Below, piece by piece: positions 4,888 through 58,199 of a DNA stretch of 64,000 nucleotides. Numbering within the stretch: the first letter of the stretch is position 1; each line of letters starts with the position of its first letter. The notes under the pieces were generated by a model that did not search any database, was not told where the DNA came from, and saw only the letters and a list, made by a program, of their open reading frames with translations. Made by a program: the position numbers and the translations under genes. Origin of the DNA: Ruditapes philippinarum (lineage: Eukaryota); NCBI RefSeq assembly GCF_026571515.1, contig NW_026851538.1, forward strand, positions 86,164 through 150,163. Direction: 5' to 3'.

Positions 4888-5400
4888 TTTTTGGGGAAAA
4901 TTACTCACTGAACACAACATTTACCAGGAACATTACTCAATGTACACAGCATTTACCAGGAACATTACTCACTGAACACAACATTTACCAGGAACATTAC
5001 TCACTGAACACAACATTTACCAGGAACATTACTCACTGAACACAACATTTACCAGGAACATTACTCACTGAACACCACATTTACCAGGAACATTACTCAC
5101 CGAACACAACATTTACCAGGAACATTACTCACTGAACACAACATTTACCAGGAACATTACTCACTGAACACCACATTTACCAGGAACATTACTCAATGAA
5201 CACAACATTTACGCGGAACATTACTCACTGAACGCAACATTTACCATGAACATTACGCAATGAACACAACATTTACCATGATCATTACTCACTGAACACA
5301 ACATTTACCAGGGACATTACTCACTGAACACAACATTTACCAGGGACATTACTCACTGAAAACAACATTTACTAGAAAATTTACTCACTGAACACATTAA
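4888..5400. repeat. 32-bp minisatellite x ~15 (acatttaccaggaacattactcactgaacaca)
   Basis: Direct reading, period 32. Degenerates toward 5400. Confidence 0.9.
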
Positions 5401-6149
5401 CCAGGAAAATTACTCACTGATCATTAACTCGAATCGTGACAGTTACAAACTGATCACAATTCAGATCTAAATACCACTCACACTCTGAGCATCATGTCTC
5501 GTATTATAAACTGAGCACCTCTCACGTCCGAGGATCAGTTCCATTGTTGATTATAATCCTCTCGCTAGGAATATTTATGAAAAAAATACTTTGACCATGG
5601 TTGTTCATTATCAGCTGCGGACGTCACAAGGTGGGATCATCGGATCATTGCGTTGAAACCAGTTTGGTTAACACCTTTGGTCAGTGTTAGGACGTGTAAA
5701 TCTGATAAATAATAATCTTAGCTGTTCAAAAAAAAAGTTAACAACATGTTTCAAAGGTCTTTTTGGAACTTTTGATCAGTATATAATGAAAAAGATAATA
5801 ATTTTCTTCACTTACTAATGGAAATGTATTTGGATAAATCGTGTAACCAATGCAGTAAGGTGCGTTTTGTATAGAGTGCGGGCATAAATAAGACAACTGT
5901 TTGTAGACAAAACATTTTTATATTGTGTGGAAGTTACGTAGAAAATTTAAAGTAGAATTTAAGACGGTAACATATCTTTTTACTTCTTTTTTTTTGTGAA
6001 AGAAAATTATTTTAATTTTAATAAAAGCCTCAAGAGTACGAATAATATCTACGGCTGTAAGATTTATGGTGTTTGTGCACCAGTAGAAAATATTAAGATT
6101 GAGAAGATGAAGAGAAAAACCTAATAAGCAACACAAAAACAAGGTACAT

Positions 6150-9601: not shown

Positions 9602-9799
9602 GAGACATGCCATGACAAAACCAACATAATGGGTTTGCGACCAGCATGGATCCAGATCAGCCTGTGCATCCGCGCAATCTGACCAGGATCCATGCTGTTC
9701 GCTTACAACCCTATTTCAAGTAGAGAAACTGATGCGCAGGCTGGTCTGGATCCATGCTGGTCGCAAAGGCATTACGTTGGTTTTGTCATGATGCAGCTC
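9602..9799 (-). mobile_element. Nested-palindrome MITE, copy 2 (shorter variant)
   Basis: Terminal gagacatgccatgacaaaaccaacataatg ... cattacgttggttttgtcatgatgcagctc. Flanking direct repeat ATTT/ATTT. Lies 23 bp upstream of the KLHDC8-like ATG exon. Confidence 0.8.
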
Positions 9800-11176: not shown

Positions 11177-11411
11177 GAGCCGTGCCATGATAAAACCAAC
11201 GTAATGCGTTTGCAACCAGCATGGATCCAGACCAGCCTGTGCATCCGCGCAGTCTGATCAGGATCCATGCTGTTAGCTTACAAACCCTATTACAAGTAGA
11301 GAAACTGATAGCGAACAGCATGGATCCTGATCAGACTGCGTGGATGCGCAAACTGGTCTGGATCCATGCTGGTGGCAAACGTATTATGTTGGTTTTGTCG
11401 TGATGCGGCTC
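11177..11411 (-). mobile_element. Nested-palindrome MITE, copy 3
   Basis: Full-length copy in KLHDC8-like intron 2, starting 9 bp after the exon-2 donor. Flanking ATTT/ATTT. Confidence 0.85.
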
Positions 11412-11928
11412 ATTTTATTGATTTTCTTTCAATACATAGGATTTTTTTTTATAAAACTTTAAACAATTGTTTCTGTATTCATAAAATTAATTCTTACTTA
11501 GTGATGTTAACTCATTTTGTATGACTCTGCATTAAAAGTGTATAACTTTTTAATATAAAACCCTTGTGACACATACATGTAGAATGTCAGAACCCATAAT
11601 TTTACGGGTGAAATGGAATGTCAAGTTGTAATTGTAAATTTAAATAAAATACTGGCCTTACATAATAGTTAAAGGTTGTCTGTCTCATTGTAGGACAAGT
11701 TTGATTGTTCAATCTCTTATCCTCATGAATTGGTTGAAAAGATATACTCTGCTTTGAATTTAGCCTTGAAAAGCATAGAACCTGGTCAAACTGCATGGAT
11801 ATACAGGCTGGCCTTGGGCTATAATGGTGGCAAAAGCCTTTCCACTTTCTACATGTTCTTACCGATTAAGGGCTTAATTAATTATACCATGTAAAACATA
11901 TAATAAAGGTGAAATGCATTATTAACAG

Positions 11929-18116: not shown

Positions 18117-18480
18117 TTAAAGCTGCACGTCTCCAGATGAGCCAAAATAATTCAAGAAAATCAATATTGATAAAAATATACTAAAATTTTAAGAAAGGTA
18201 AAATCATTGAAGATCCAAGTTACATTTTACATGTTATGTGCGGTTTATGACAGATTTTGCAGTATTTTATCACCATATTTCTACTGCGTTTCTAACACAG
18301 TAAGGGCTGTTTTTGCATAAGTTGACCAAGTTCTGGTGATTTTCTTGGATTGTAAGTGCCGTGGGCAATATGTAAATAACTTTATTTGTTTGCCTCACAT
18401 TATTTTACTTTTAAATGCATTTCCAAAATTTTTAAAGAAAATTAACATGAATCTGGAGGCATGCTGCCTTAACTTCAAAA
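18117..18480 (+). repeat. Dispersed ~360-bp repeat, copy 2
   Basis: ttaaagctgcacgtctccagatgagccaaaataattcaag...catgaatctggaggcatgctgccttaa. A degenerate MITE-like relic follows at ~18600-18680. Confidence 0.55.
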
Positions 18481-19069
18481 TTACCTGATGATGTAAGATC
18501 TGATAATGTAAGAGTCAACCCTTCATTTGCACAATGGATTCGCAGTGCTTTGAAATTGGAACAGCCCTGGGAATTCAATCCCAAATTACAAAAAAGTGAG
18601 CTACCACCAGTATAGAGCCTGGTCAGACTGCATAGATGGCACAAATGGCCTGTCTCTGTACTGGTGGCAAAGGCTCATCATTTCTTTGTCTCTAGTAGGT
18701 TACGGGTTAAATACTCTTGTAAAAGTGTACATTTTTTTCACTGCTAAAATTTGACAAAATTATACTGGTGGTGTCACCCAAAAATGTTTTTGACCTTGTT
18801 GCTGAAAAATATTTGCTATTTTAAAGATTCTTTTTATCTGAGTGAGGGTAATTGTTTTTGTTGAAGAAAATATATATATATTTATTTATCACTTGTAAAC
18901 TGCTGCTATGTGTATGTTACTAAAATAATTATTGTGTTAGTTTAGTTATATTTTACCATTAATTTATATTATAAGAATAATAGCTGTTATATGATTCACT
19001 TATTTTCATTTGTATTGAATACTATGCACCATTTTTAGCTCGACTATTCGAAGAATATGAGAGCTATTG

Positions 19070-19125
19070 TAGTCGCCCCGGTGTCGGCGTCGGCGTCAGC
19101 GTCGGCGTCGGCGTCTGCGTTGGTT
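19070..19125. repeat. (GTCGGC)n microsatellite
   Basis: gtcggcgtcggcgtcagcgtcggcgtcggcgtctgcg. Confidence 0.85.
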
Positions 19126-19950
19126 AAAGTTTTTTGTAAAGTCAAATATCTCAATTATTACTTGAGATATTCAATTGAAACTTACAATACTTATTTATAG
19201 TAACAAGGTACATCAGATTGACAAGTTGGATAACTCTGCCTACAATATTGACAGAATTATGCCCCTTTTTAACTTAGAAATTTTGGTTAAAGTTTTTTGT
19301 AAAGTCAAATATCTCAACTATTGCTTGAGATATTCAATTGAAACTTACAATACTTATTTATAGTAACAAGGTACATCAGATTGACAAGTTGGATAACTCT
19401 GCCTACAATATTGACAGAATTATGCCCCTTTTTAACTTAGAAATTTTGGTTAAAGTTTTTTTATAAAGTCAAATATCTCAATTATTGCTTGAGATATTCA
19501 ATTGAAACTTACAATACTTTATTTATAGTAACAAGGTACATCAGATTGACAAGTTGGATAACTCTGCCTACAATATTGACAGAATTATGCCCCTTTTTAA
19601 CTTAGAAATTTTGGTTAAAGTTTTTTTGTAAAGTCAAATATCTCAATTATTGCTTGAGATATTCAATTGAAACTTACAATACTTATTTATAGTAACAAGG
19701 TACATCAGATTGACAAGTTGGATAACTCTGCCTACAATATTGACAGAATTATTGCCCCTTTGGAACTTAGAAATTTTGGTTAAAGTTTTTTTATAAAGTC
19801 AAATATCTCAATTATTGCTTGAGATATTCAATTGAAATTTAAAATACTTTTTTTATAGTAACAATGTACATCAGTTTGCAAAATTGCATAACTCTGTCTG
19901 CAAAATTTGCAGAATTATTTGCCCCTTTGAAAGTTAGAAATTTTGGTTAA
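19122..19950. repeat. ~163-bp tandem repeat x ~5
   Basis: The marker ggttaaagttttttgtaaagtcaaatatctcaa recurs at 19122, 19285, 19447, 19613, 19775. Confidence 0.85.
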
Positions 19951-20700
19951 AGGTTAAAGGTCTTCAAAGATATTTACTTGAAACTTTACACATGCACTTA
20001 GGGTCATAATTGGAGGGTCATAATTGTATGTCACTGACCAAGTTCCATAACTCTATCTTGCATTAAGGCTGATTCATATCCCCTTTTCTACTTAGTCTCT
20101 TGGTTAATGTTTACATGCAAGTTTTACATATCTCAATAACTATTAAAGATATTTATTTAAAACTTCACATATGCATTTAGGGTCATAATTGTAGGTCACT
20201 GACAAAGATCCATAATTCTATCTTGCATTTAGGCTGATTTTTCTCCCCTTTTTCAACTTAGAAATTCATGGTAAAGTTTTGCTTGTAAGCTGTTATCTCA
20301 ATAACTACTGAAGGGTTTGTGCCTTTTTTGGGACAATTTTATGCATTCATAATAATAAAGCAGTGATTTACTTGATAAAACATCTTAATAACAAGCCTTT
20401 GTACCTTTTCTGTCAAATTTATGTAGGGTCATAATTGTAGGTCACTGACAAAGATCCATAATTCTATCTTGCATTTAGGCTGATTTTTCTCCCCTTTTTC
20501 AACTTAGAAATTCATGGTAAAGTTTTGCTTGTAAGCTGTTATCTCAATAACTACTGAAGGGTTTGTGCCTTTTTTGGGACAATTTTATGCATTCATAATA
20601 ATAAAGCAGTGATTTACTTGATAAAACATCTTAATAACAAGCCTTTGTACCTTTTCTGTCAAATTTATGTATTCATAGGTAATTAGTATTATTATACTCA
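19950..20700. repeat. ~255-bp tandem repeat x ~2.7, related to the preceding array (shared ccccttttt-aacttagaaatt motif)
   Basis: 20175-20430 and 20435-20690 are near-identical. 19990-20170 is a diverged unit. Confidence 0.8.
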
Positions 20701-22985: not shown

Positions 22986-24215
22986 AGCTCACCTGTCACA
23001 AAGTGACAGGGTGAGCTTTTGTGATCGCTTTTCGTCCGGCATCCGTCCGGCATCCGTCGGTCCGTCCGTAAACTTTTACTTTAAATGACATCTCCTCATA
23101 AACCACTAGGCCAATTTCATCCAAACTTCAGAGGAATGTTCCTTTGGTGGTCACCTTTAAAAAATGTTCAAAGAATTTAATTCCATGCAGAACTCTGGTT
23201 ACCATGGCAACCGAAAGAAAAAACTTTAAATATCTTCTTTTAAAAAACCCAAAGAGCTAGAGCTTAGATTTTTGGCATGAAACATCTTCTAGTGAGTGTC
23301 TACCAAGTTTGTTCAAATAAAAGCCCTGGGGTCAAAATTGGCCCCGCCCCAGGGGGTCATTGATTTTCCCTATATGCATATAGTAAAAACTTAAAAAATC
23401 TTCTTTTAAAGAACCTAAAGAGCTAGAGCTAAGATATTTAGAATGAAACATCTTCTAATGAGTGTCTACCAAGTTTGTTCAAATAAAAGCCCTGGGGTAT
23501 AAATTGGCCCCACCCCAGGGGGTCATTGATTTTCCCTATATGCATATAGTAAAAAATCTTCTTTTAAAGAACGCAAAGAGGTAGAGCTAAGATATTTAGC
23601 ATGAAACATGTTCTAATGGGTGTCTACAAAGTTTGTTCAAATAAAAGCCCTGGGGTCAAAATGGGCCCCGCCCCTGGGGGTCATTGATTTTCCTTATATG
23701 TGTATAGCAAAAACTTAAAAAATCTTCTATGAAAAAACCCAAATAGCTAGCGTTAAGATATTAAGCATGAAACATCTTCTAGTGAGTGTCTACAAAGTTT
23801 GTTCAAATAAAAGCCCTGGGGTCAAAATTGGCCCCGCTCTGGGGGTCATTGATTTTCCTTATATGTGTATGGCAAAAACTTAAAAATCTTCTTTGAAAAA
23901 ACCCAAATAGCTAGAATTTAGATATTAAGCATGAAACATCTTCTAGTAAGTATCTACAAAGTTTGCTCAAATAAAAGACCTGGGGTCAAAACTGGCCCCG
24001 CCCCAGAGGTGTCATTGTTTTTAATTATATGTGTATAGTAAAAACTTAAATAATCTTCTTTTAAAAAACCCAATGAGCTAGAGGTAAGATGTTTAACATG
24101 AAACATCTTCTTGTGGGTGTCTTCCAAGTTTGTTCAAATAAAAGCCCTTGGGTTAAAATTGGCCCTGCTGGGGGGGCCTTTATACAGGTGAGCGACCTTA
24201 GGGCCCTCTTGTTTA
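22986..24215 (+). mobile_element. Composite hairpin-headed element carrying a ~165-bp satellite array (Helentron-like), copy A
   Basis: Head agctcacctgtcacaaagtgacagggtgagct (perfect hairpin), then a (ccgtccg)n-like stretch and a ~200-bp unique part. Then 6 tandem units of ~160-165 bp (marker gtttgttcaaataaaagccctggggtcaaaattggccccgcccc at 23309, 23472, 23630, 23798, 23957, 24127). Tail caggtgagcgacc..gggccctcttg. Confidence 0.65.
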
Positions 24216-25234
24216 TTATGTTGGGAGCATTAAAATTTGGACCTTTTGAACAATATGACATGGCACTGAGTTTTGATAAAAGTTGACCTTGTGACCTCCA
24301 TTTTGCATTTTAATTTCTCCAAGAAAAAAACTGATGTATCAATTTGAGAACATTTTGATAATTAAAATAGGTAACAGGTACCATGTCAACAAAATGTATA
24401 TAATAAAATACTTAATTTACATTACAAAAATCAATGTTCAATGCATTCATGTGTTCCAAAAATATAAGTCAACCTATGAAAAATATGTTGTAAGTAAAAC
24501 ATAAAGTTACATTTTAACAAGTCAGAGACTAAAGTAAGTTTACAAAATTTCATGTCCTATAGATTTTAGAAAAAGAGTTGAAATATAAAATAAAGTTTAA
24601 CATGAGTTAAAATATAAAATAAAGTTTAACATACCTGTAGAAATACACATAGACAGAATAAGTCAAAATATATCCTTTATTGACAGTCCAAGAAATAAAT
24701 TATGACTGTCTAACCTTAAACTGTCTCTTTTATAGGTATGTTTTGGAATTGTTTGAAAAGTAAAATTAATTTATTAATGGGTTTTCACTTTGAAGTTATA
24801 AATGTCAAACACTACGAAGGAAACAAAGCTGTAATATTTTACACAACTATTATTCTGTATTGGTTTGTATTTACTCTATAAAAAACAGTCCATCTGTGAA
24901 ACAAAGAAAAGTGCTAAAAAGACCTACAGTGCTTCCTAGGCTTAAGCAAAATGTGTTAATTTAACAATATCTTAAGTATGTTTGACATGTAAAGAATGAT
25001 GGTTTCTATCCCAAAGTTTGAAGAAGTTATTACTGTTAAAATACATGGTATTTTAAGGTTTAAATTTGAAAATACAAACAAGTAAAATATAGATACAAAA
25101 ATGTACAAAATTATGCATTATGTAATATAAAAAAATAACTCATATTTGGGGTTCCTTATAATGTATTTAATTGTATTTAAAAGTAATTTATTGTGAAATT
25201 AACAAATAAAGCTATTTACATATTGCAAACGGAA

Positions 25235-25478
25235 CTTATAATCCAAGAAAATTACCAAAAAGTGGTCAACATATGCAAAGAGAGCCCTTACTGTGTTGGT
25301 AACGCTGTAGAAATATGGTGATAAAATACTGCAAAAGCAGTTGAACCACATATATGTATAACATTTTAAATATCACTTGGATCTTGAATGATTTTACTTT
25401 TCTAAAATTTTAGTACAATTTTCTCAATATTGTTTTTCTTGAAATATTTTGGCTCTCCTGCAGGCGTGCAGCTTTAAA
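25235..25478 (-). repeat. Dispersed ~360-bp repeat, partial copy 3 (inverted), abutting MITE copy 4
   Basis: Reverse complement of the first ~240 bp of copy 2 (...caatattgtttttcttgaaatattttggctctcctgcaggcgtgcagctttaa). Confidence 0.5.
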
Positions 25479-25479
25479 T

Positions 25480-25725
25480 GAGCCGTTTGCAACCAGCATG
25501 GATCCAGACCAGCCTGCGCATCCGCGCAGTCTGGATCAGGATCCATGCTGTTCGCTTACCGCGCAGTCTGATCAGGATCCATGCTGTTCGCTTACAAACC
25601 CTATAACAAGTAGAGAAACTGATAGCGAACAGCATGGATCCTGATCAGACTGCGCGGATGCGCAGGCTGGTCTGGATCAATGCTGGTCGCAAACCCATAA
25701 TGTTGGTTTTGTCCTGACACGGCTC
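25480..25725 (-). mobile_element. Nested-palindrome MITE, copy 4 (left TIR partly deleted, internal 40-bp duplication)
   Basis: Flanking AAAT/AAAT. Internal duplication cgcgcagtctg(g)atcaggatccatgctgttcgcttac x2. Abuts a copy of the ~360-bp dispersed repeat. Confidence 0.8.
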
Positions 25726-25789: not shown

Positions 25790-26900
25790 ATAACTTTACA
25801 GTGAGTAAGGAACAGTTATAACATATAAGTAATTATATGGTATACAATGTTTCATACACATGAGAACTTTATGGGACAGACATTACAAACACATGATAAC
25901 TGTTGTGCACAGACCGTTTTGAGCACATATATACAAATGTAGTAACTTTTTGGTACAGAACATTTCAAACACATAGTTTCTGTGTTTGACAAAACATTTT
26001 GAACACATAGAAATTGTGTTGGAAAAAAGATTTAAAACAGATAGTTAAGTTAGTGTTTTGGACAAAACATTTTGAACACATAGTAACTGTGGGGAACAAA
26101 ACATTTTGAACACATGGTTACTGTGTGGAACAAAACATTTTGAACACATGTAATTGTGTGGAATAAAACATTTTGAATACATAGTTACTGTGTTGGACAA
26201 AACATTTAAACACAGCATTTTGAACACATAGTAACTTTGTGGAACAAAACATTTTGAAATCAAAGTAACTGTGTGGAAAAAATATTTTAAACACGAAGTA
26301 ACTTTGTTGGACAAAACACGTTTTGAACACATAATAACTGTGTGAAACAAAACAATTTGAACACATAATTATTGTGTGGAACAAAAATTTGAACACATAG
26401 TAACTTTGTGGACAAAACATTCTGAACACATAGTAATTATGTTGGACAACACATTTTGAACACATAGTAACTGTGTGGAACAGAACATTTTGAACACATA
26501 GTAACTTTGTTGGACAAAACACCTTTTGAACACTTAGTAACCTATTGGACAAACCATTTGAAACACCTAGTTACTGTACAGAACAAAACATTTTGAACAC
26601 ATAGTTACTGTGCAGAACAAAATATTTTGAACACATAGTGACTGTATGGGACAAAACATGTAGTTATGTTGGGGACACATTTTAAAGATATGTCTGATAC
26701 AGGACAGTGAAAACACATAGGAACTGTGTAGAATAGAATTCTTTGAACACAGACTAACTGTTTTGTAGAGATTTTTTGAACACATAGTGTATATGTAGTA
26801 TAGAACCTTTTGAACTCATAGTAACTGTATTGATAACCTTTTAAACTCACTTATAGTAACTATTAAAAGCAAATTGTTACTATGTGGTTCAGAACATATC
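25790..26900. repeat. ~36-bp minisatellite x ~30 (aacattttgaacacatagtaactgtgtggaacaa)
   Basis: Direct reading. It generates the artefactual Cys-rich ORFs 26045-26850 (-). Confidence 0.9.
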
Positions 26901-27079: not shown

Positions 27080-28385
27080 AGCTCACCTGTCACAAAGTGA
27101 CATGGTGAGCTTTTGTGATCGCTTTTCGTCCGGCGTCCATCCGTCCGTAGACTTTTACTTTAAATGACATCTCCTCATAAACCACATAGCTAATTTCATC
27201 CAAACTTCACAGGAATGTTCTTTTGGTAGTCAACTTTAAAAATTGTTCAAAGAATTTAATTCCAAGCAGAACTCTGGTTGCCATGGCAACCGAAAGAAAA
27301 AACTTAAAATATCTTCTTTTAGAAAACTGCAAGAGCTAGAGCTAAAATATTTGGCATGAAACATCACCTAGTCATAGTCTACCAAGTTTGTTCAAATAAA
27401 TGCCCTGGGTTCAAAATTGGCCCCGCCCCAGGGGGTCATTGATTTTCCTTATTTGTATATAGGAAAAACTTAAAAAATCTTCTTCTAAAAATCCCCAAAT
27501 AGCTAGAGCTTAAATATTCAGCATGAAACATCTTCTAGTAGGTGTCTACCAAGTTTGTTCAAATAAATGCCCTGGGGTCAAAATTGGCCCCGCCCCAGGG
27601 GGTCATTGATTTTCCTTATTTGCATGAAGTAAAAACTTAAAATATTTTCTCTTAGAAAACCGCAAGAGCTAGAGGTTAAATATTTAGCATGAAACATCAA
27701 CTTTTCAGTGTCTACCAAGTTTGTTCAAATAAATGCCCTGGGGTCAAAATTGGTCCCGCCGGGGGGGGGGGGGGTCATTGGTTTTCCTTATTTTATATAT
27801 AGTAAAAACTTAAAAAATCTTCTTTTAAAAACCCCATATAGCTAGAGCTTAAATATTAAGCATGAAACATCTTTCAGTGGGTGTCTACCAAGTTTGTTCA
27901 AATAAATGCCCTGGGGTGAAAATTGGCCCAACCCTGGGGGGTCATTGATTTTCCTTATTTGCATATAGTAAAAACTTAAAATATTTTCTTTTAGAAAAAC
28001 GCAAGAGCTTAGATATTTGGCATGAAACATCACATAGTCAATGTCTACCAAGTTTGTTGAAATAAATGCCCTGGGATCAAAATTGACCCCACCCTGAGGC
28101 GTTATTTTCTAGTTAGCGTCTTCCAAGTTTGTTTAAATAAAAGCCCTGGGGTCAAAATTGGCCCCTCGAGTGGGGGTCATTGTTTTTTCCTATATGTGTG
28201 TAGTAAAAACTTTAAAAAAAATCTTCTTTTTAAAACCCCAAAGAGTTAGATATTTATCATGAAACATCTTCTAATCGCTGTCTACCAAGTTTGTTCAAAC
28301 AAAAGTCCCTGGTTTAAAATTGGCATTGGCTCAGGGGGCTATATACAGGTGAGCGATTTCAGGGCCATCATGACCCTCTTGTTTT
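27080..28385 (+). mobile_element. Composite hairpin-headed element with ~170-bp satellite array, copy B
   Basis: Same head (agctcacctgtcacaaagtgacatggtgagct) and same tail (caggtgagcgatttcagggccatcatgaccctcttg). About 7 tandem units, with a G14 run at ~27762. Confidence 0.65.
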
Positions 28386-35428: not shown

Positions 35429-35753
35429 AGTCCGCATACCGTAAAATTTCAGTTGAAATACTTGTAGAGATGACGTCATTTCATTTTTGGTTTTATTAAT
35501 GGTGACAACATATTACTTTCTAATATTTGCATTTTATTGGATCTTTCACGAAAACAAAATAAATACCTAGTGTTTTATGTGGCCCCTTAACCTTATATAA
35601 ACTTTGAAGCTACTTTCCCACTCACAACAAGCCTAAAAACATCAAACAGTTTCCAGTTTCACTTGACACAGAAATAAACACCCATATTTATCACACCCAC
35701 TATTTTAACATGTAGCGAGGACAGCTTGATGCAGGTAAAACTTCAATATAAAT

Positions 35754-35974
35754 GAGCCGCGTCACGACAAAACCAACATAATGCGTTTGCTTCCAGCATG
35801 GATCCAGACCAGCCTGCGCATCCGCGCAGTCTGATCAGGATTCATGCTGTTCGCTGTCAGTTTCTCTACTTGTTATAGGGTTTGTAAGCGAACAGCATGG
35901 ATCCTGATCAGATGGCTGGTCTGGACCCATGCTGGTCGCAAACCCATTATGTTGATTTTGTCGTGACGCAGCTC
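35754..35974 (+). mobile_element. Nested-palindrome MITE, copy 5 (reference copy)
   Basis: gagccgcgtcacgacaaaaccaacataatgcgtttgc...loop gtcagtttctctacttgttatagggtttgtaag...cccattatgttgattttgtcgtgacgcagctc. Flanking AAAT/AAAT. 326 bp downstream of the claudin-like A stop. Confidence 0.85.
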
Positions 35975-37091
35975 AAATGTCAGTTTTAAACCGAATTTCT
36001 AAGATATGTTCTTTTTTTGTCTGTTTTTATAGACATAATTTTCTATCATATATTCTGCAGCAATCGATTGCTGAATAAAAAACTTACCCAGCGCCAAATT
36101 GTTCTACCCGTAACCAAACTTATTTACTTGCAACAAGTTAACGGGTGTGATTACAACTTTAGTCGTTGCAACGGTTTAAAAATACAGCAGAAATATTTTA
36201 CTTTGATGTTTTTTTTCGTCGGACAAGATCATGTATTTTTTCGTCGGACAAGATCATGTATTAATCCCCAAGCTACATGTAAATGTAAGAGCCTGTGGTG
36301 CAATTTTACTAGTATCTTTTGATGTCATTTTACATGTATTTCAAAAATGCCCAAACTACATTGTGTGGGATAGTAGCTTCAATCATCAATGTTGCGTTTG
36401 TAACGATAAAACTATTTTGTAATTATATATATTATGATGAATAAAGTTTTGAGAGGAAATTGCTTTTTTGATTTTCTGTTCATGATAAATGAATGAAAAC
36501 AAAATACATCATATACCGTTTATAAATAAGTCAAACACAGAAATGTCTTCCCGTCTGTGCGTGGCGTGTACGGCACATGGGCATCGGCTGAATATTTGCG
36601 GCTTGGCGGATAGAAAACTTTTATACTAAACTGCCAGTTCTCGGATTTCTTCTTCGATCAGCTGACGATGTCCCGACTGAAGCCGAGGGGAGTGGCACTA
36701 CAATGTAGGCGGAGACGACGAGGAAAGTGTGCTAGGGTGCGCAAGCACATATATTGACGGCTTAAAAGGCAGGACCTTTGCTGGCACAACAACCCTTTTC
36801 AGTGCTATTTCCTTTTCATATTGTCTCAGTTAACTGTACATTTAAGTTCTCATTGACCACTGTATAGGGACCTACTTTAGGCTGAAAATTCATATATTTG
36901 GCTTATACTTATAGGAAATTGTATGGAGGTAAATTATCACCACTGTGTGCTTCAAAATTAACTCTTTAGGGGCATGGCTGCTGACATATTCCGGATCCGT
37001 ATACTCGACAGCAAAAGCTACATTTAGTCTCTAATAGGACAGATGGACACACATCATCATTATCATCAAATATTAAATATAGCTGTCATAT

Positions 37092-40761: not shown

Positions 40762-40931
40762 AGCATCCGCGCAGTCTGATCAGGATCAATGCTGTCCGCT
40801 ATCCGTTTCTCTACTTAAAATAGGGTTTGAAAGCAAACAGCATGGATCCTGATCAGACTGCGCGGATGCGCAGGCTGGTCTGGATCCATGCTAGTCGCAA
40901 ACCCACTATGTTGGTTTTGTCATGACGCGGC
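40762..40931 (+). mobile_element. Nested-palindrome MITE, copy 6 (5'-truncated)
   Basis: Starts inside the left arm (catccgcgcagtctgatcagg). The right arm is complete. Confidence 0.7.
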
Positions 40932-42387
40932 ACATATATACTTCTCGTTCAACGCAGCAGAAAGATGAGTAAACATAAAGTGTTCGCTTGTCAAACTGGT
41001 GCACTTTCATATAGCATGTAGATTTCCCACAGTGAATGTAGAAAACTACCACCATATATCACTGTTGTACAGCGTCCACCGGATATAGCCTCTAAAAACA
41101 CAGAAAACGAAAGTAGAAAGCTGCACAACGAGTACACCATTTAATTTGCAAACAAAAGCAAATATTGCTCTAAAACTAGAAACATTTAGCTTCACAAAAT
41201 TGTTTAGTTTGGAAAAATCGATGAAGTTATGATGAAGAAATAAGTTAAAACATTACCTCGGGTGTACTCGGTGTGCAGCTTTCTACTTTCGTTTTCTGTG
41301 TTTTTAGGGGCTATAACTGGTGGACGCTGTACAACAGTGTATATGACGTAATTGGCAATTTGTATAAAGTATAGTACCAGCGTATTTAGGACGGATGCCT
41401 TATATGCCATTAAACGTTGCTGTTGTTGCTGTTTGTACATTAAATATACTTTGGTCATTTGTAAGTTTGGGTTTTGAAAATAATACTAGAAAATAAAGTT
41501 ATCTGTACAAATATTCTAGAGCATGGTTTGTCAAACCATATACAGTCAATCTTGTATTAAGAGACCGCTCAAGGGTGAGGTCAAAAGTGGTCTCTTAATA
41601 AAACGGTCTCTAATGCAAAACTAGGTTTTCCAACCAAATTTCACGGGTCATAGCATGTACAAATATCAATTAAACATAAGCAGGAAATGAAACAGTTTAA
41701 TAGTTTAATATTTTTATTATCATATATTCCAACATTCCTTCAAAATTCAGACATTTACATATAATAGATATGATATGAATTACTAAATTTATTACTTTAT
41801 TTTAATAACCTATTTTACTGAGTCAACATCAAACAATAAAGCTACAATAATAAGTTGGTTTTTTTTTCTACAAGAATAACATTTTCTACAATGTTTTGGT
41901 TGGTCATTTCAACACATTGGCATTGTGATTAATGTAGCACTATCCTATGTTTCTAACTTTTAACACATTTCATGGTAACCACCTCTTTACCTGAAAAAAG
42001 TCACTAATCTTTGATTACTTTGTATCAACCTCAGCTCTAAAACTCACAAAACTGTCCCGTAAAGTCATTATGCTTTCAAGCCATTTGTCTTGACCTTTGC
42101 TCAATGCTAATTCTTTCAATTTATACAACATCTCATTTGCATCACTCATACTAAAAATGTCCCAGTAACAGTGTTCAAGTCAAATGTTGGAACTGCTTTA
42201 TCAAATATGTACATATATAACAAAAACTTTGAAAACTGATTTCCATGCTTCATACATTCGTTGATTTTCAGACAAAACTATCAATGACTTCTTGAAAATT
42301 TTCAGTTCTGTAGTCCCACAGACTTACTCCAACTGGGAGATAAGTAAGAAGAGTGCACACTCTTCTAGGTCCAAATCATATAATTAT

Positions 42388-42530
42388 GAGCCGCGTCACG
42401 ACAAAACCAACACAGTGCGTTTGCGATCAGCATGGATCCAGACCAGCCTGCGCATCCGCGCAGTCTGATCAGGATCCATGCTGTTCGTTATCAGTTTCTC
42501 TACTTGTAATAGGGTTGGTAAGCGAACAGC
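42388..42530 (+). mobile_element. Nested-palindrome MITE, copy 7 (left arm plus loop only)
   Basis: gagccgcgtcacgacaaaaccaacacagtgcgtttgcgatcagc...loop...gcgaacagca, then unrelated sequence. Confidence 0.7.
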
Positions 42531-43173
42531 AATGGAGCCATACCACGAGATAAGAAAACATACTTACTAATCACTGTATTACTGAGCGTCCGGTTTTGTT
42601 ACATCGTTCTCTTGAGAAGTATTGTACCCAAGAAGAGTGTTAAAGTAAAGCTTGTTAAGTTGTTTTGAAGAATTATCTTCAGTGACCTTGTCTGAAATTG
42701 GAGCTTTAGATGTATTTTCAGAAATTTCTTTGGAACTGATGATTTTGCATAATCTTCGTCTCCCTAATACTTTCTCTTCACGATCCAATGGATGCGTAAC
42801 TTGATGGAATTATATACCCCCTTTTCAATGTGGAAAATGTTGAATATGTTACCAATATGGCCATGTTACAGCATTTAAGAAACAGACTTTCCTTTCCACA
42901 TATAAATAACCATCATTTAGGTTTACAATAATGATGACTTGTTATTTTGTTTCCCCTTAAGATCTCTATAACGCCCTCTAATATTACGTCACATAAAATT
43001 GTGTTCAGGTGAGCTAGACATAAACCAAATTAAAAGAAAATTATGATATTTGATATTTATAAAACTTTTATTATATACAATAAAAAAACAAACAACGTAC
43101 AGTTGTTTTTACACGCATAAAAAATATGCTTTGTTCCAATAATGAGACATTTTAAACTAATGAGGACATAATT

Positions 43174-43407
43174 GAGCCGTGTCACGACAAAACCAACATA
43201 ATGGGGTTGCAACCGGGATGGATTCAGACCAGCCTGCGCATCCGCGCAGTCTGATCAGAATCCATGCTGTTCGCTTAAGACCCTATAACAAGTAAAGAAA
43301 CTAATAGCGAAAAGCATGGATCCTGATCAGACTGCACGGATGCGCAGGCTGGTCTGGATCCATGCTGGTCGCAAACCCATTATGTTGATTTTGTCGTGAC
43401 ACGGCTC
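43174..43407 (-). mobile_element. Nested-palindrome MITE, copy 8
   Basis: Full-length, somewhat more diverged (ggggttgcaaccgggatggattcagacc). Flanks aatt/atat. 150 bp upstream of the LINE fragment. Confidence 0.8.
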
Positions 43408-43559: not shown

Positions 43560-45645
43560 ACTAATTAATGTAGTACTTTGCCTCATCATTTCCTACTGAA
43601 GAGTGGTCATTTAGTTGCAAAATAAGCATAATGTGTCGAAGAACACTGCATCAAATGACTTTGGCAATGACCAGGCTTCTGTTGACTTAGATCAGTTTAA
43701 TTTTAATAGTGTTGATGAAATAGAGAATGAACACTTTGATAGCATGATAACTATTGATGAGGTACTGAAATGTATTTTACATGCAAAGTCTGGTAAAGCA
43801 CCGGGTTATGACAATATACCATGTGAACTACTAAAAATGATTCTGCGTTAGCTTTGCTACATAGTCTTTTTAATAGATGTTTTTTAAGTGGTTCTGTTAC
43901 TACTGCATGGTCTGAGAGTATAATTTCACCAGTTCCCAAGTCTTCAACCACAGACCCACGGGATCCTTTGTCATACAGGGGTATTTCTTTGGCTCCATCC
44001 ATGTATAAAATATACTGCTCTGTTTTAAATAATAGATTAGTAAAATGGACAGCTAGTAATAATATTATAAGTGATGAGCAAAATGGTTTTATAAAAGGTA
44101 AAAGTACAATTGACCAAGTACAGTCCCTAACAAATATTATTGAAACACGTAAACTTAAAAAGTTACAAACATTTACTGCTTTTATAGATTTCAGGAAGGC
44201 GTATGACCTTATAGACCGTACATCACTGTGGCAAAAGTTGCACCAGCAGGTGGGGATAGGGGGCAGACTGTTTCAGGCAATTTCATCATTATATAAAGAT
44301 GTTTAAGTGCTGTATACGCTTAAATGGATTTGATACACCTTGGTTTGATGTAAAATGTGGATTGAAACAAGGCTGCCCCCTGTCTCCAATGCTGTTTAAC
44401 TTGTATATTAATGATTTAGTAATGTATATGAATAATTTAGACAAAGGTGTTTATATTGGTGAAAGAAAAATATGTATTTTGCTATATGCTGATGACATAG
44501 TTTTGTTGGCAGAAAAGGCCAAAGATCTTCAATCCATGTTAGATGCTTTAGCTTTATGGTGTTGTCAAAATAAAATGACTGTCAATTGTGATAAATCCAA
44601 TATTGTTCACTTTAGAGCCGACAGTATTTCTAAAACTGAACATGTTTTTGAATTCAATTCAGAAAAACTGGAAATTGTTCATAGTTATAAGTATCTTGGT
44701 GTCGTACTAAATGAATTTTTGGATTATAATGAAATTGCAAAGACAGTTGCAATGTCTGCCTCTAGAGCACTTGGTCTTGTTATATCCAAAAGTAAGGCAT
44801 TTGGTGGTTTTCAGTACTCAACATTTACAAAACTTTATGATTCAATGGTATGGCCCATAATTAATTACAGTGCCCCGATTTGGGGTGATAGATCTTACTC
44901 GTGCATTAATGCAGTTCATCATAGGGCAATGCGTTACTACTTGGGTGTTGGAAGATACACCCCGAATGTGGCTGTAAGTGGAGAGATGGGTTGGAAACCA
45001 CCAATTGTTAGACAGTGGGTGTCTGTATTTAGACAGTATTTTAGAGTTATGAATATGGATGATAATAGAATTAATAAATCTGTATTTATGTGGTCTAAAG
45101 CAAGTAATGTCAAGAATGGTTTTTACCGACTTAAGAAACTTTTAAAAGATATTAATAGTAGTCACATACTAGAGGCTAATATCGGAAATGCCAAACCTAC
45201 CATATCAATGCTAGAATCTAAACTTATGGAAATAGCAACAAATAAATGGAAGTTATTACTTCAGAGAGAAAATGCCATTAGAGGAAATGGCGGGAATAAA
45301 TTAAGGACTTACAGGAAGTTTAAATCTCAGTTCTGCACTGAAAAGTACCTTACGTCTAAGTTGCCATTTATGTATAGATCAGCCTTTACAAAATTCAGAT
45401 GTGGTATAGCACCACTAAGAATAGAAACAGGTCGTAATGAAAATATTAATGTAATAAATAGAAAATGTTTTAATTGTCCGGACACTGCAGAAGATGAGAA
45501 ACATGTATTACTTTACTGTCCATTATATAATGATGTAAGGAAAGAGTTGGTCTCTGCGTTAGATGATGTATTAAGAAATAGAGATACTAGTATTGTATCT
45601 GATGATGACAAAATGGTTAAAATTTTAGTAGTAAAAACCTAGTAT
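43560..45645 (+). mobile_element. 5'-truncated, frameshifted LINE ORF2 (reverse transcriptase plus CCHC-like C-terminus)
   Basis: Three consecutive ORFs (43615-43851, 43854-44306, 44299-45642) in frames 1/0/1 carry RT motifs: GYDNIPCELLK, PVPKS...RGISLAPSMYKIY, FIDFRKAYDLIDR, GLKQGCPLSPMLFNLYINDL, LLYADDIVLL, and a C-terminal CFNCPDTAEDEKHVLLYCPLY. The first shift sits in an A5 run (~43835). The second is near 44295. No endonuclease domain is present. Confidence 0.7.
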
Positions 45646-48169: not shown

Positions 48170-48309
48170 GAGCGCTTATCAACTCTATTACAAGTAGAGA
48201 AACTGATAGCGAACAGCATGTATCCTGATCAGACTGGGCGGATGCGCAGGCTGGTCTGGATCAAAGCTGGTCGCAAACCCATTATGCTGGTTTTGTCGTG
48301 ACACGGCTC
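48170..48309 (-). mobile_element. Nested-palindrome MITE, copy 9 (internally deleted: left terminus gagcgc joined to loop plus right arm)
   Basis: Flanking AAAT/AAAT despite the internal deletion. Begins 13 bp after the exon-1 donor of claudin-like B. Confidence 0.7.
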
Positions 48310-50631
48310 AAATATTATAATGATGTGTTTCTTTAGTTCAACCATGATCCCGCTGGTTTATCCACGAATATAGAAACCAGACTAGTCTGCACTTCCGTGC
48401 AATCTGACCAGGCTCTATACTATTGGCCGACTCATTAATTTTTTTCATAATAAAGATATCCCCCAAAATTGATAATTGTAAGTTCTTATAATGCAACTAT
48501 TACAGATGGACAAGAACATTTAAGAAATGCAGAATATTAATGTTTCATTATTATTTTTTAATCCCGATTAAAGAGATAGATATAAACTATTTTAATTATT
48601 TTGAGTTTGCTTAGAACTAGCCAGTGCTGGTGTTGTATAAAAGATATAATTATGGTCGTTACCTGATATATGGCTCGAACCCAAATCGCTTGGCTGAGCT
48701 GTAGAAGATTTAACCACTGTAAGACAAACGCTCCCCCTGTATTTGAGCTGTGGTTGACAATAGAATTTAGATACGTTTAAAGTAACATTATTCACATCTA
48801 AATGTACATGGTAAAAATAAAAACAGTTTGATGTTTTGCCATAATTGTGTTCGATTTAATATTTTACAACGAACACATATACCAACGGAAAGGTTTATAA
48901 ATAGCGTTTAGAATCGCTAACGCTCATTGTTAAAAAAAAGTAGGGCAGTCTTTTTATAATTAAGGTAATTTTTACATTGTATCATAAACAATTTTCATTA
49001 TATTTTATTGGCCAATCAACATAATAATCAGATTTTTTTAAAAAATATATTACTAATTTAACTAAATTTGACAACGAAAAAAATGAGCATATACAGTCAC
49101 TTTGAAATAAACTTTAAAAAAAATTCGATATACATGTATATTCAAATGTTAATAAAGTTATATTTCCTTATCTCTTAACTTCTTGACTCTAGATTAGATG
49201 TCTTATCTCAGTTTTAAATGTATTATCATTATAAGTGTTTTTATTTCCTTTCATGTAACCCTCAAAATTATCTTTAATCGTGTGTTTACATTTGTATGAA
49301 ATTGTCGTACAGCTAAATTTCATTTAAATGCATATAAAGCTAATTTCTCTACCATGTGACATAACACGTGAAGCTTCGCTGAATTTGAAACATAATTATT
49401 TCACCAGTTGAAATAAAATGTGTATTATTAAGAGTGAGACTAAAAATAAGTGTGGGACCACAACACTAAATAACGTATTCCGGTATATACCGGATAATGC
49501 GCTGTTGAATAATTAAATCTTGCACCAAACGAAATGAACTTTATTAAAGTGTATAAGCTATATATCAAAAAATATTATGTAGATTTTAAAAAAGAATTCT
49601 TCCTAAATGTTTGTATGAAATAAAAATTCAATAAATTGCCTTAAAGCGAATGGCGAATGCGCAAAATCATTGCTAAACGGATAAAACCCTAGTTAAAATA
49701 GCAAAATAATATTTTGTTCCGGAACATTTTATTCTGTTTAAGTTCATTTTTCATGTGTATTAAATAACAGAGCCATTCTATGTTACAACTTTTTTTTCCG
49801 GGAATCAGCCATATAACAATTGAACCGATATAATTTTACTGTTGATAAATTTTATAAAAATATTTCATAAGATATAGATTTATATCCTTTAATACGTGTT
49901 ATTGAAAAATAGTTTTCTACTAAGTGATCATGATTTCTGCAAGCGTCTATAGGTACTGCTCCAACACTGTAGTGAGCTTAACCCTGTGATAAACGTACAC
50001 CATTTATTTAGTAAACACAAGGTTTATGTTGCTTATTATTTACGGAAGTTTTTCATTGTACTACCTGTCATTGAATCATTATATGAGTATATTTGCTTAA
50101 TTTCAAAATCTTGTCTATCATCTAATCCATCCATTACCTGTACATGGATGGTAGTAGTAAATGCAGGCTACAGCCTACAGCCGCTACCCCATGCCCTATA
50201 GCACCGGCTTAGGCATTTATATTTTAGGACAACATTTATGTATGAAAATTGATCAATTTAGACTTCAGTAACATCCACGACTGACGACTTGTAAATGATA
50301 TTTTTAGAATTAAGTTACATATACGATGCGAAATGTAATTTTGCATAAATTTTGTTTATTTTTGTTTGGTTTTATGGCGTACCAACGTAATTTAGGTCAT
50401 AATTATGGCGCCGAATCAGGAAAGGTGATTTTGGCTAACCTCGAGTGTTACAAGCTTTAAAGCAACACGATGGGTCAAAACCACGTCACCTGCTGGAGCT
50501 AAGGTCTTGAGATGCATTGACTCCAGTAATTCGAAACCATTTAGTCGCTTCTTATGACGACACAGGGATAAACGGTGGATGCATAATGTCTTAGTTTTTT
50601 TAGTACACAGCTTATATTTCTTTTATAACAG

Positions 50632-54185: not shown

Positions 54186-55203
54186 CAATAGAGCCGTGAT
54201 GGCCTTAAAAATCGCTCACCTGAACTCTCCATGACAACGTACAAGTAATATTGTAAACTATAAAAAAGCAGATATAAAATTTAACTCTTAAACTGATATC
54301 TCAAAGTTAATATTTGTATCTGAAAAAGTGCATGTTTATAAATATTTCTAGTTGCTACTGCTAAGAGAAACCCCAAGAGATGTGTACATATACCGGGGCG
54401 GGCCAATTTTTACCCCAGAGGTTTTAGTTGAATAAACTTGGGAGACACCCAATGGCCATTAGGAGATGTTTCATGCCAAATATCTAAGGTCTAGCTCTTT
54501 GGCTTTTTAAAAAGACATTTTAAAAAAGTGTTTAAAATATACATATAAGGAAAATCAATACCCCCTTGGGCAGGGCCAATTTTGATCCAAGGGCTTTTAT
54601 TTGAGTAAAGTTGGTAGACACCCATAAGAAGATTTTTTATGCTTAATATCTAACTCTAGCTCTTTGGGGTTTTTGCAAAAGATTTTTTTTTAAATTTTTT
54701 ACTATATACATATAACGAAAATAAATGATCAAAGGACTTTTATTTGAACAAACTTGGTAGCCACTCACTAGAATACGTTTCATGCTTTATATCTAAGCTT
54801 TAGCTATTTCGTTTTTTTTAAAAGAAGATTTTGAAAGTTTTTTACTAAATACATATAAGGAAAATCAATGACTCAAATTTTTGACCCAGGGTTCTATTTG
54901 AATAAACTTGGTAGATACCTATAAGAAGATGTTTCATGCCAAATATCTAAGCTCTCGCTCTTTGGCTTTTTTAAAGAATTTTTTTTTAAAGTTTTTTTCT
55001 CTCAGTTGCATGGCAACCAGAGTTCTGCTTTGAACATTTTTTAAAGTTTACCACCAACTGAACATCCGTGTGAAGTTGGATTAAACCGGCTAAGAGGTGT
55101 TTGAGCTGATATCGTTTAAAGTAAACGTTTATGGACTGACGGACGACCGCCGGACGGATTGTGATCACAAATGCTCATCTTGTCACTTTGTGACATGTGA
55201 GCT
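54186..55203 (-). mobile_element. Composite hairpin-headed element with satellite array, copy C (inverted)
   Basis: The reverse complement of the head lies at 55171-55203 (atgctcatcttgtcactttgtgacatgtgagct) and of the tail at 54186-54221. ~4 satellite units at 54390-54990. Followed by a (CA/GCA)n microsatellite at 55222-55305. Confidence 0.6.
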
Positions 55204-57964: not shown

Positions 57965-58199
57965 GAGCCGTGTCACGACAAAACCAACATAATGGTTTTG
58001 CGATAAGCATGGATCCAGACCAGCCTGCGCATCCGCACAGTCTGATCAGGATCCATGCTGTTCGCTTACAAACCCTATAACAAGTAGAAAAACTGATAGC
58101 GAACAGCATGGATCCTGATGAGACTGCGCGGATGCGCATGCTGGTCTGGATACATGCTGGTCGCAAACGCATTACGTTGGTTTTGTCGTGACGCGGCTC
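57965..58199 (-). mobile_element. Nested-palindrome MITE, copy 10
   Basis: Full-length, flanking ATAT/ATAT. ~370 bp upstream (in gene orientation) of the FReD N-terminal exon. Confidence 0.85.

Follow-up and report, generated by a model that had tools for sequence, protein, structure and literature searches.

A whole-body palindromic MITE family of probable Sola1 affiliation in a 64-kb window of bivalve DNA

The element and its copies in the window

A short palindromic element lies at positions 35754-35974 of a 64-kb stretch of bivalve DNA, the whole of which was analysed and is referred to here as the window. The element is 221 bp long, runs opposite to the consensus as given here (minus orientation), and is bounded by the two halves of an AAAT target-site duplication (35750-35753 on the left and 35975-35978 on the right). 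Its outermost 40 nt on the plus strand (35754-35793) form one terminal inverted repeat, which begins with GAGCCGCGTCACGACAAAACC and carries the Sola1-like decamer CACGACAAAA at positions 10-19. This is followed by a first arm palindrome (35794-35849), composed of two ~26-nt units (CAGCATGGATCC-AGACCAGCCTGCGC and then its imperfect inverse) around the tip ATCC. A central unpaired loop of ~32 nt (35856-35887, minus strand) is the sole asymmetric part of the element and sets its orientation. The second arm palindrome (35893-35934) has been shortened by a 14-bp deletion that removed the tip of one arm hairpin, and one of its BamHI sites has mutated to GGACCC, with two of four such sites remaining in the copy. 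The element is completed by the opposite terminal inverted repeat, whose outer 40 nt (35935-35974, minus strand) end in GTCGTGACGCAGCTC.

Related sequence is abundant around this copy. The 12-mer CAGCATGGATCC, allowing at most one mismatch, occurs 33 times in the 64-kb window, as compared to 0.06 occurrences expected from dinucleotide-preserving shuffles. The initial annotation had listed ten copies of a ~235-bp element, all of which were recovered by BLASTN within the window using the copy at 11177-11411 as the query, and the boundaries of two of them were corrected to 40763-40933 and 42388-42539. Together, the ten copies account for 3.2% of the window. Full length (234-235 bp) is retained by only three of them, whereas the rest carry deletions, are truncated or run past the edge of the window. 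The full-length copies are all in plus orientation and lie at 11177-11411 (235 bp, target-site duplication ATTT/ATTT), 57965-58199 (235 bp, ATAT/ATAT) and 43174-43407 (234 bp), the last of which has the flanks AATT/ATAT, a decayed target-site duplication. Among the shorter plus-orientation copies, 9602-9799 has a 36-nt internal deletion (ATTT/ATTT), 25480-25725 combines a 26-nt deletion in the left terminal repeat with a 36-bp tandem duplication (AAAT/AAAT), and 48170-48309 is a half element in which GAG is followed by the loop and the right arm, positions 4-99 being deleted (AAAT/AAAT). In minus orientation, the copy at 1-207 begins outside the window, retains four BamHI sites and is followed by the right flank ATAT; 40763-40933 is truncated, with one end missing and an ATAT flank after the retained end; and 42388-42539 is a half element made of one arm and the loop, the other arm having been deleted. 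The loop thus occurs in both orientations, as had been proposed, with six copies in plus and four in minus.

None of the copies has coding capacity, and no open reading frame of at least 130 aa overlaps any of them. A LINE reverse transcriptase is encoded on the plus strand at 43854-45642 by two overlapping open reading frames of 150 and 447 aa, both of which match Pfam RVT_1. Since the gene is split into two overlapping frames, it probably carries a frameshift. Relatives of the LINE protein are found in Mercenaria mercenaria, in Mytilus edulis and in 'Thiodiazotropha' bins in which lucinid clam DNA is an evident contaminant, and the closest relative, a LINE copy with 96.8% DNA identity, is present in a Logan contig of run SRR29986439. 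The protein relatives, along with the satellite-like arrays described below, mark the host as a bivalve mollusc, and the window as a whole is eukaryotic and repeat-rich. The MITE copy at 43174-43407 is located ~450 bp upstream of this LINE.

Anatomy and predicted folding of the consensus

Alignment of the ten sequences (alignment A1) produced a 235-bp consensus. Reading 5' to 3', the consensus opens with the outer terminal repeat (40 nt; GAGCCGCGTCACGACAAAACCAACATAATGGGTTTGCGAC), followed by unit a (26 nt; CAGCATGGATCCAGACCAGCCTGCGC), a tip of 4 nt and unit b in inverse orientation. The loop comes next, and beyond it lie unit b as such (26 nt; CAGCATGGATCCTGATCAGACTGCGC), a second tip, and the inverses of unit a and of the terminal repeat. 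Units a and b differ at five of their 26 positions, and the two ~26-nt units of each arm make up one imperfect palindrome of 56 nt. Fold prediction divides the consensus into a stem of ~101 bp and a loop of ~33 nt, with the 101-nt arms pairing almost fully. The predicted folding energy is -221.4 kcal/mol as RNA (z = -32.8) and -145.2 kcal/mol as DNA (z = -31.4), thereby bearing out the long stem that had been anticipated from the sequence. A single arm folded alone reaches -49 to -58 kcal/mol, and the long stem is far more stable.

The earlier description of a near-perfect ~100-bp inverted repeat holds for the consensus only, complementarity between the arms being 87-91% in the three full-length copies. 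The same crude division into arms yields 74% for the copy at 35754-35974, owing to its deletion. Each arm of this copy forms an imperfect palindrome whose own 26-nt arms are 85% complementary. Nested hairpins had also been described, and each arm is indeed an imperfect palindrome, but the 'second-order' and 'third-order' hairpins turned out to be the outer and inner parts of one and the same palindrome. Similarly, four BamHI sites are present in the consensus, although all four are kept in only three of the ten copies, with two left in the copy at 35754-35974. Of the 28 BamHI sites in the window, 26 nevertheless fall within MITE copies. In base composition, the element (53% GC, 16 CpG) stands apart from the window (32% GC), and the observed/expected ratio for CpG falls from 1.01 for the consensus to a mean of 0.85 for the copies, with 0.75 for the window.

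Termini, target-site duplications and status as a MITE

All intact termini start with GAG or end with CTC, except for one GTG variant at 40933. Identical 4-mers flank six of the seven copies that have both ends (p ~4e-13), namely AAAT in three, ATTT in two and ATAT in one. The pattern AWWT was found in nine of nine flanks beyond an intact high-coordinate terminus, against a background of 0.057 per position (p ~6e-12); flanks that depart from it are two left flanks (TTAT and AATT) and one metagenome flank (ATCT). The duplication is consistently 4 bp long, and no duplication of 8-9 bp was seen. Because the A and T of AWWT are fixed, an alternative reading places the element ends at TGAG...CTCA and shortens the duplication to the 2 bp WW. 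Pre-insertion sites were sought by joining the flanks of each copy and searching them against the window, and no spanning match was found there.

These features uphold the original designation of the element as a MITE. It is short (below ~800 bp) and non-coding, has terminal inverted repeats and a duplication of fixed length (six of seven copies), and occurs in the window in many copies, in either orientation and in unrelated contexts. An extremely improbable alternative is that the copies are not mobile at all, and stem from segmental duplication or faulty assembly, or else represent a structural motif selected by the host, such as a cruciform with a role in replication or chromatin organisation. 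The density of ten copies in 64 kb, the strong cruciform potential and the GC- and CpG-rich composition (53% GC and a CpG observed/expected ratio of 1.0, within a window of 32% GC) would be in keeping with such a motif. However, the copies are ~10% apart, their boundaries are sharp and marked by 4-bp duplications, and many of them are truncated or one-armed, such that the structure has not been preserved. Related copies also occur on independent metagenome contigs. In comparisons within the window, the flanks of the copies show no similarity to one another; as the flanks are unrelated and the copies differ in sequence, the copies are not assembly duplications, a possibility that the initial annotation had raised against its own reading. 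The element is a real, well-defined and ordinary transposable-element family. It may already have an entry in Repbase or Dfam, and a literature search with the exact strings of the terminal repeat and core found no paper.

Near-whole inverted repeats, high copy number and insertion in either orientation are shared with other MITEs whose whole body is palindromic, such as human Made1 of the Tc1/mariner group and Stowaway-like elements. Those elements duplicate TA, in contrast to the AWWT duplicated here. Resemblance to the Pearl, CvA and DTC84 modular MITE-like elements of bivalves extends to the host group, to abundance, to non-autonomy and, for some of them, to the possession of palindromes. 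Pearl, CvA and DTC84 carry internal BIV160-type tandem repeats, whereas the present element has none and such arrays stand separately in the window.

Probable assignment to the Sola1 group

The family is most probably a non-autonomous class II MITE of the Sola1 group, as judged from its target-site duplication and a terminal sequence motif. A 4-bp AWWT target-site duplication counts as a hallmark of Sola1 DNA transposons according to PMC3845634, which cites Bao et al. 2009, and the element has this duplication in common with Sola1 elements. Sola1 and abundant MITEs are present in bivalves (PMC10294476), and three curated autonomous Sola1 consensus sequences are known from the ark clam Anadara kagoshimensis (Sola1_A.kagoshimensis_21, 22 and 23; PMC10294476, supplementary file 12). 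In the element, CACGACAAAA occupies positions 10-19 in 14 of 15 intact termini, with CATGAYAAAA where the CpG has decayed. The corresponding positions of the three A. kagoshimensis consensus sequences hold CAYGNNAAAA in five of six termini (PMC10294476). The background rate of CAYGNNAAAA is ~1e-4 per position; this motif of 10 nt, in register, was defined after both sequence sets had been seen. The link to a Sola1 transposase is drawn from the duplication and this post hoc motif, as no autonomous partner sharing these termini was found.

The remaining terminal bases set the element apart from its putative relatives. It begins with GAGCCG, whereas the clam Sola1 elements begin with GACTGC, GTGTCA and GACGTT. 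Across the first 11 terminal bases, there are four mismatches to the closest clam Sola1 (GAGCCGCGTCA in the element versus GACTGCCGTCA). A Repbase rule of thumb for a shared family allows at most one mismatch over terminal positions 1-11, and under this rule the element therefore does not belong to the same family as its nearest clam Sola1. Non-autonomous Sola1 elements of Bombyx mori and Rhodnius prolixus (Sola1_NA) are similarly short, non-coding and present in many copies with terminal inverted repeats, although the insect Sola1 MITE terminal repeats given in PMC3845634 (GGACCG...) are unlike those of the element. Another difference from the putative Sola1 relatives is that the entire body of the element is palindromic, with a further palindrome nested in each arm. 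A tblastn search with a clam Sola1 exon detected no Sola1 transposase remnant in the window or in the compared loci; given that the window holds no such remnant, the element is non-autonomous.

It is unlikely that the family instead belongs to a superfamily other than Sola1, be it one with TGAG...CTCA ends and a 2-bp duplication, a member of Ginger2, Sola2 or Academ (3- to 5-bp duplications), or a Foldback-like element. AWWT can be parsed as a 2-bp WW duplication between fixed T/A termini, and similarity of the target site and of the terminal-repeat motif is all that ties the element to Sola1. Against this, the flanks are never TTAA, as they would be for piggyBac, Kolobok or Sola3, and are not the plain TA of Tc1/mariner, since the duplicated unit is 4 bp. 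Nor are they TATA, the Ginger2 duplication reported in PMC3845634. The in-register CAYGNNAAAA shared with three autonomous bivalve Sola1 families further argues for Sola1.

Foldback-type elements have long inverted-repeat arms composed of repeated sub-units, tend to rearrange internally and generate duplications of 8-9 bp. The long arms of the present element, likewise assembled from repeated sub-units, recall this type. The element is nonetheless small and uniform (235 bp), with two sub-units per arm, and its duplication is consistently 4 bp, with none of 8-9 bp.

Proposed mechanism of transposition and origin of the palindrome

Under a Sola1 assignment, the DDE transposase of an autonomous Sola1 element located elsewhere in the genome would bind the terminal repeats, and might also recognize the four repeated 26-nt units as subterminal sites. 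The element would then be excised and reinserted at AWWT with a 4-bp staggered cut, in a cut-and-paste reaction operating in trans, and repair of the staggered cut would give rise to the AWWT duplication. The whole-body palindrome probably came about when one transposon end, together with its subterminal repeats, was copied in inverted form, and is better seen as a by-product of this origin than as an adaptation.

A consensus and a probable superfamily are now available for ~3% of the window, which aids repeat masking and annotation of the source genome, and the consensus provides a handle for finding an active or extinct Sola1 partner. Sola1 is poorly studied, and the four 26-nt units could guide work on transposase binding. 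The biological value of the family is otherwise modest, and nothing in it points to a new kind of system.

Age and decay of the family

The copies had been described as nearly identical, from which a recent amplification was deduced. Neither statement withstood comparison of the sequences. Pairwise identity ranges from 83 to 96%, with a mean of 89.8%, and identity to the consensus from 90.5 to 96.7%, such that the copies are ~10% apart from each other and ~5.5% away from the consensus. Amplification is not very recent, and the family is ageing rather than young. Differences from the consensus, summed over per-copy counts, affect ~12.7% of CpG-site positions compared to ~5% of other positions. 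This CpG excess fits methylation-driven decay at some copies, and the concentration of substitutions at CpG suggests germline methylation of at least some of them.

Six of the ten copies are rearranged inside the palindrome. The rearrangements comprise loss of a tip (35754), the 36-nt deletion (9602), the 26-nt deletion with the 36-bp tandem duplication (25480), loss of a whole arm in both 42388 and 48170, and truncation in 40763. Such a pattern of deletion and rearrangement fits the replication or repair errors to which palindromes are prone, and the arm-loss and tip-loss derivatives illustrate the decay of long palindromes. The initial annotation had also proposed that the elements act as recombination or replication-fork hotspots. 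The rearrangements fit, and lend indirect support to, structural instability of the copies themselves, but do not show that the elements are hotspots for the host genome.

Relics and occurrence in other sequences

Older, degenerate relics of the element had also been suspected in the window, and weak ones were confirmed at about 11768-11840, 18604-18671 and 48362-48427. Each is a single arm-type hairpin, with 73-78% identity to one arm over 51-73 nt (E ~1e-5 to 1e-8), the aligned segments being 11768-11840, 18608-18671 and 48377-48427. The relic at 11768-11840 is 73-76% identical to one arm, while that at 18604-18671 is ~77% identical and has 22-nt arms that are 82% complementary. The third, at 48362-48427, is 76-78% identical over 51 nt and adjoins the half copy at 48170. 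These relics may be old copies that lost an arm, as the young half-copies have, or may belong to an older family related to this one.

Outside of the window, a scan of metagenome contigs with a 19-mer returned six loci, of which only two hold the element, both from the JGI metagenome Ga0182091. A full copy and a copy end are present there on two contigs, at 82-88% identity to the window copies and with the flanks ATTT and ATCT. No element was found in prokaryotic genome contigs, which were scanned with two patterns, or in viral contigs. Samples of ~20 kb each from Mercenaria, Mytilus edulis and one further ENA assembly contained no full copy.

A diverged hairpin with 72-76% identity to one MITE arm is present in Mercenaria mercenaria CM038764.1 (L009, 20147-20225), and reads GTTTGCGACCAGTACAGACC...CTGCACTGTTCG. 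It was the only arm-like hairpin in the three ~20-kb samples, and suggests that the arm palindrome predates the 235-bp family and is common to distant bivalves.

Fate of transcripts and the question of small RNAs

Long hairpins of this type had been proposed as precursors of small RNAs, in which case the elements would be, or would have become, hairpin-RNA genes: Dicer would cut the stem, and the resulting siRNAs or miRNAs would control host genes or the transposon family itself. The stem is certainly very stable (-221 kcal/mol as RNA, z = -33). MITE-derived miRNAs are also known in other lineages; the human MITE Made1 is reportedly the source of mir-548. On balance, we regard the existence of such hairpin-RNA genes as very unlikely. 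The stem is not conserved, given that the arms are 87-91% complementary and that whole arms have been deleted in several copies, and at 100 bp it far exceeds the length of animal miRNA precursors. The host is a mollusc, moreover, and a 2025 survey of 32 molluscs reported no dedicated endogenous siRNA pathway and no siRNA-type Argonaute or Dicer, with Dicer-like read pairs at least fivefold below those of siRNA-bearing species (PMC12479628). The element differs from Made1 and its mir-548 in residing in a mollusc, a group reported to have no Dicer-dependent siRNA route (PMC12479628).

Rfam matches to miRNA precursor models, all of them sub-threshold, would lend some support to small-RNA production. 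At gathering thresholds, Rfam gave no match. With permissive E-values, two copies were searched, and the scores obtained were 40.8 bits for mir-5892, a family of the nematode Haemonchus (cut-off 82), and 25 bits for plant MIR172 (cut-off 70). These matches were rejected as generic hairpin hits, as their scores are far below gathering and as a different, unrelated family was matched by each copy. The matches reflect hairpin shape only, as any long hairpin would give.

A different fate may await the stem if the element is transcribed within a host transcript, where it would serve as a substrate for ADAR editing rather than as a source of siRNAs. Among 22 holozoan species, A-to-I editing was found mainly on double-stranded RNA formed by young repeats, DNA transposons ranking among the most readily edited (PMC9989829). 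Taken together with the reported absence of siRNAs in molluscs (PMC12479628), this literature makes ADAR editing or piRNA control the more likely fate of transcribed stems. We give little credence to the stronger proposals that transcripts of the 100-bp stem are processed into Dicer-type small RNAs or, relatedly, that they are dominant ADAR substrates setting the double-stranded RNA threshold of innate immunity. If true, Dicer-type processing in a bivalve would contradict the siRNA absence reported in molluscs.

Other repeats in the window

The window contains several further repeats. Tandem arrays with units of 166-167 bp occupy 23219-24165 and 27298-28094, and an array on the opposite strand with units of 143 bp occupies 54583-54877, the unit containing CCCTGGGGTCAAAAT. 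The reverse complement of CCCTGGGGTCAAAAT has 13 nt in common with primer bivR of the bivalve BIV160 satellite (PMC5139131). From their sequence, the 166-167-bp and 143-bp arrays look like BIV160/Cg170-type satellite-like arrays scattered in euchromatin.

At 19079-19952, a (CGGCGT)7 microsatellite is followed by five copies of an unrelated 165-bp tandem repeat (95% matches), a combination of microsatellite and short array reminiscent of the modular pearl and Helentron-associated elements of bivalves. At 20178-20671, exactly two tandem copies of a 246-bp unit occur with 100% identity, reflecting either a duplication that is very recent or an error of assembly. A 32-bp tandem repeat at 4895-5420 (GGAACATTACTCACTGAACACAACATTTACCA) comprises 16.5 copies with 91% matches.

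Two repeats border the MITE copy at 25480-25725. Directly downstream of it, a degenerate 34-bp minisatellite of ~25 units (70-80% matches) spans 25948-26828 and creates a spurious open reading frame of 144 aa at 26118-26552. On the other side lies a dispersed ~300-bp repeat, for which the segments at 18117-18411 and 25180-25477, and also 1441-1724, show 70-83% identity. The repeat ends at most 2 bp from the insertion point of the copy at 25480, which may have inserted at or beside the end of this older repeat.
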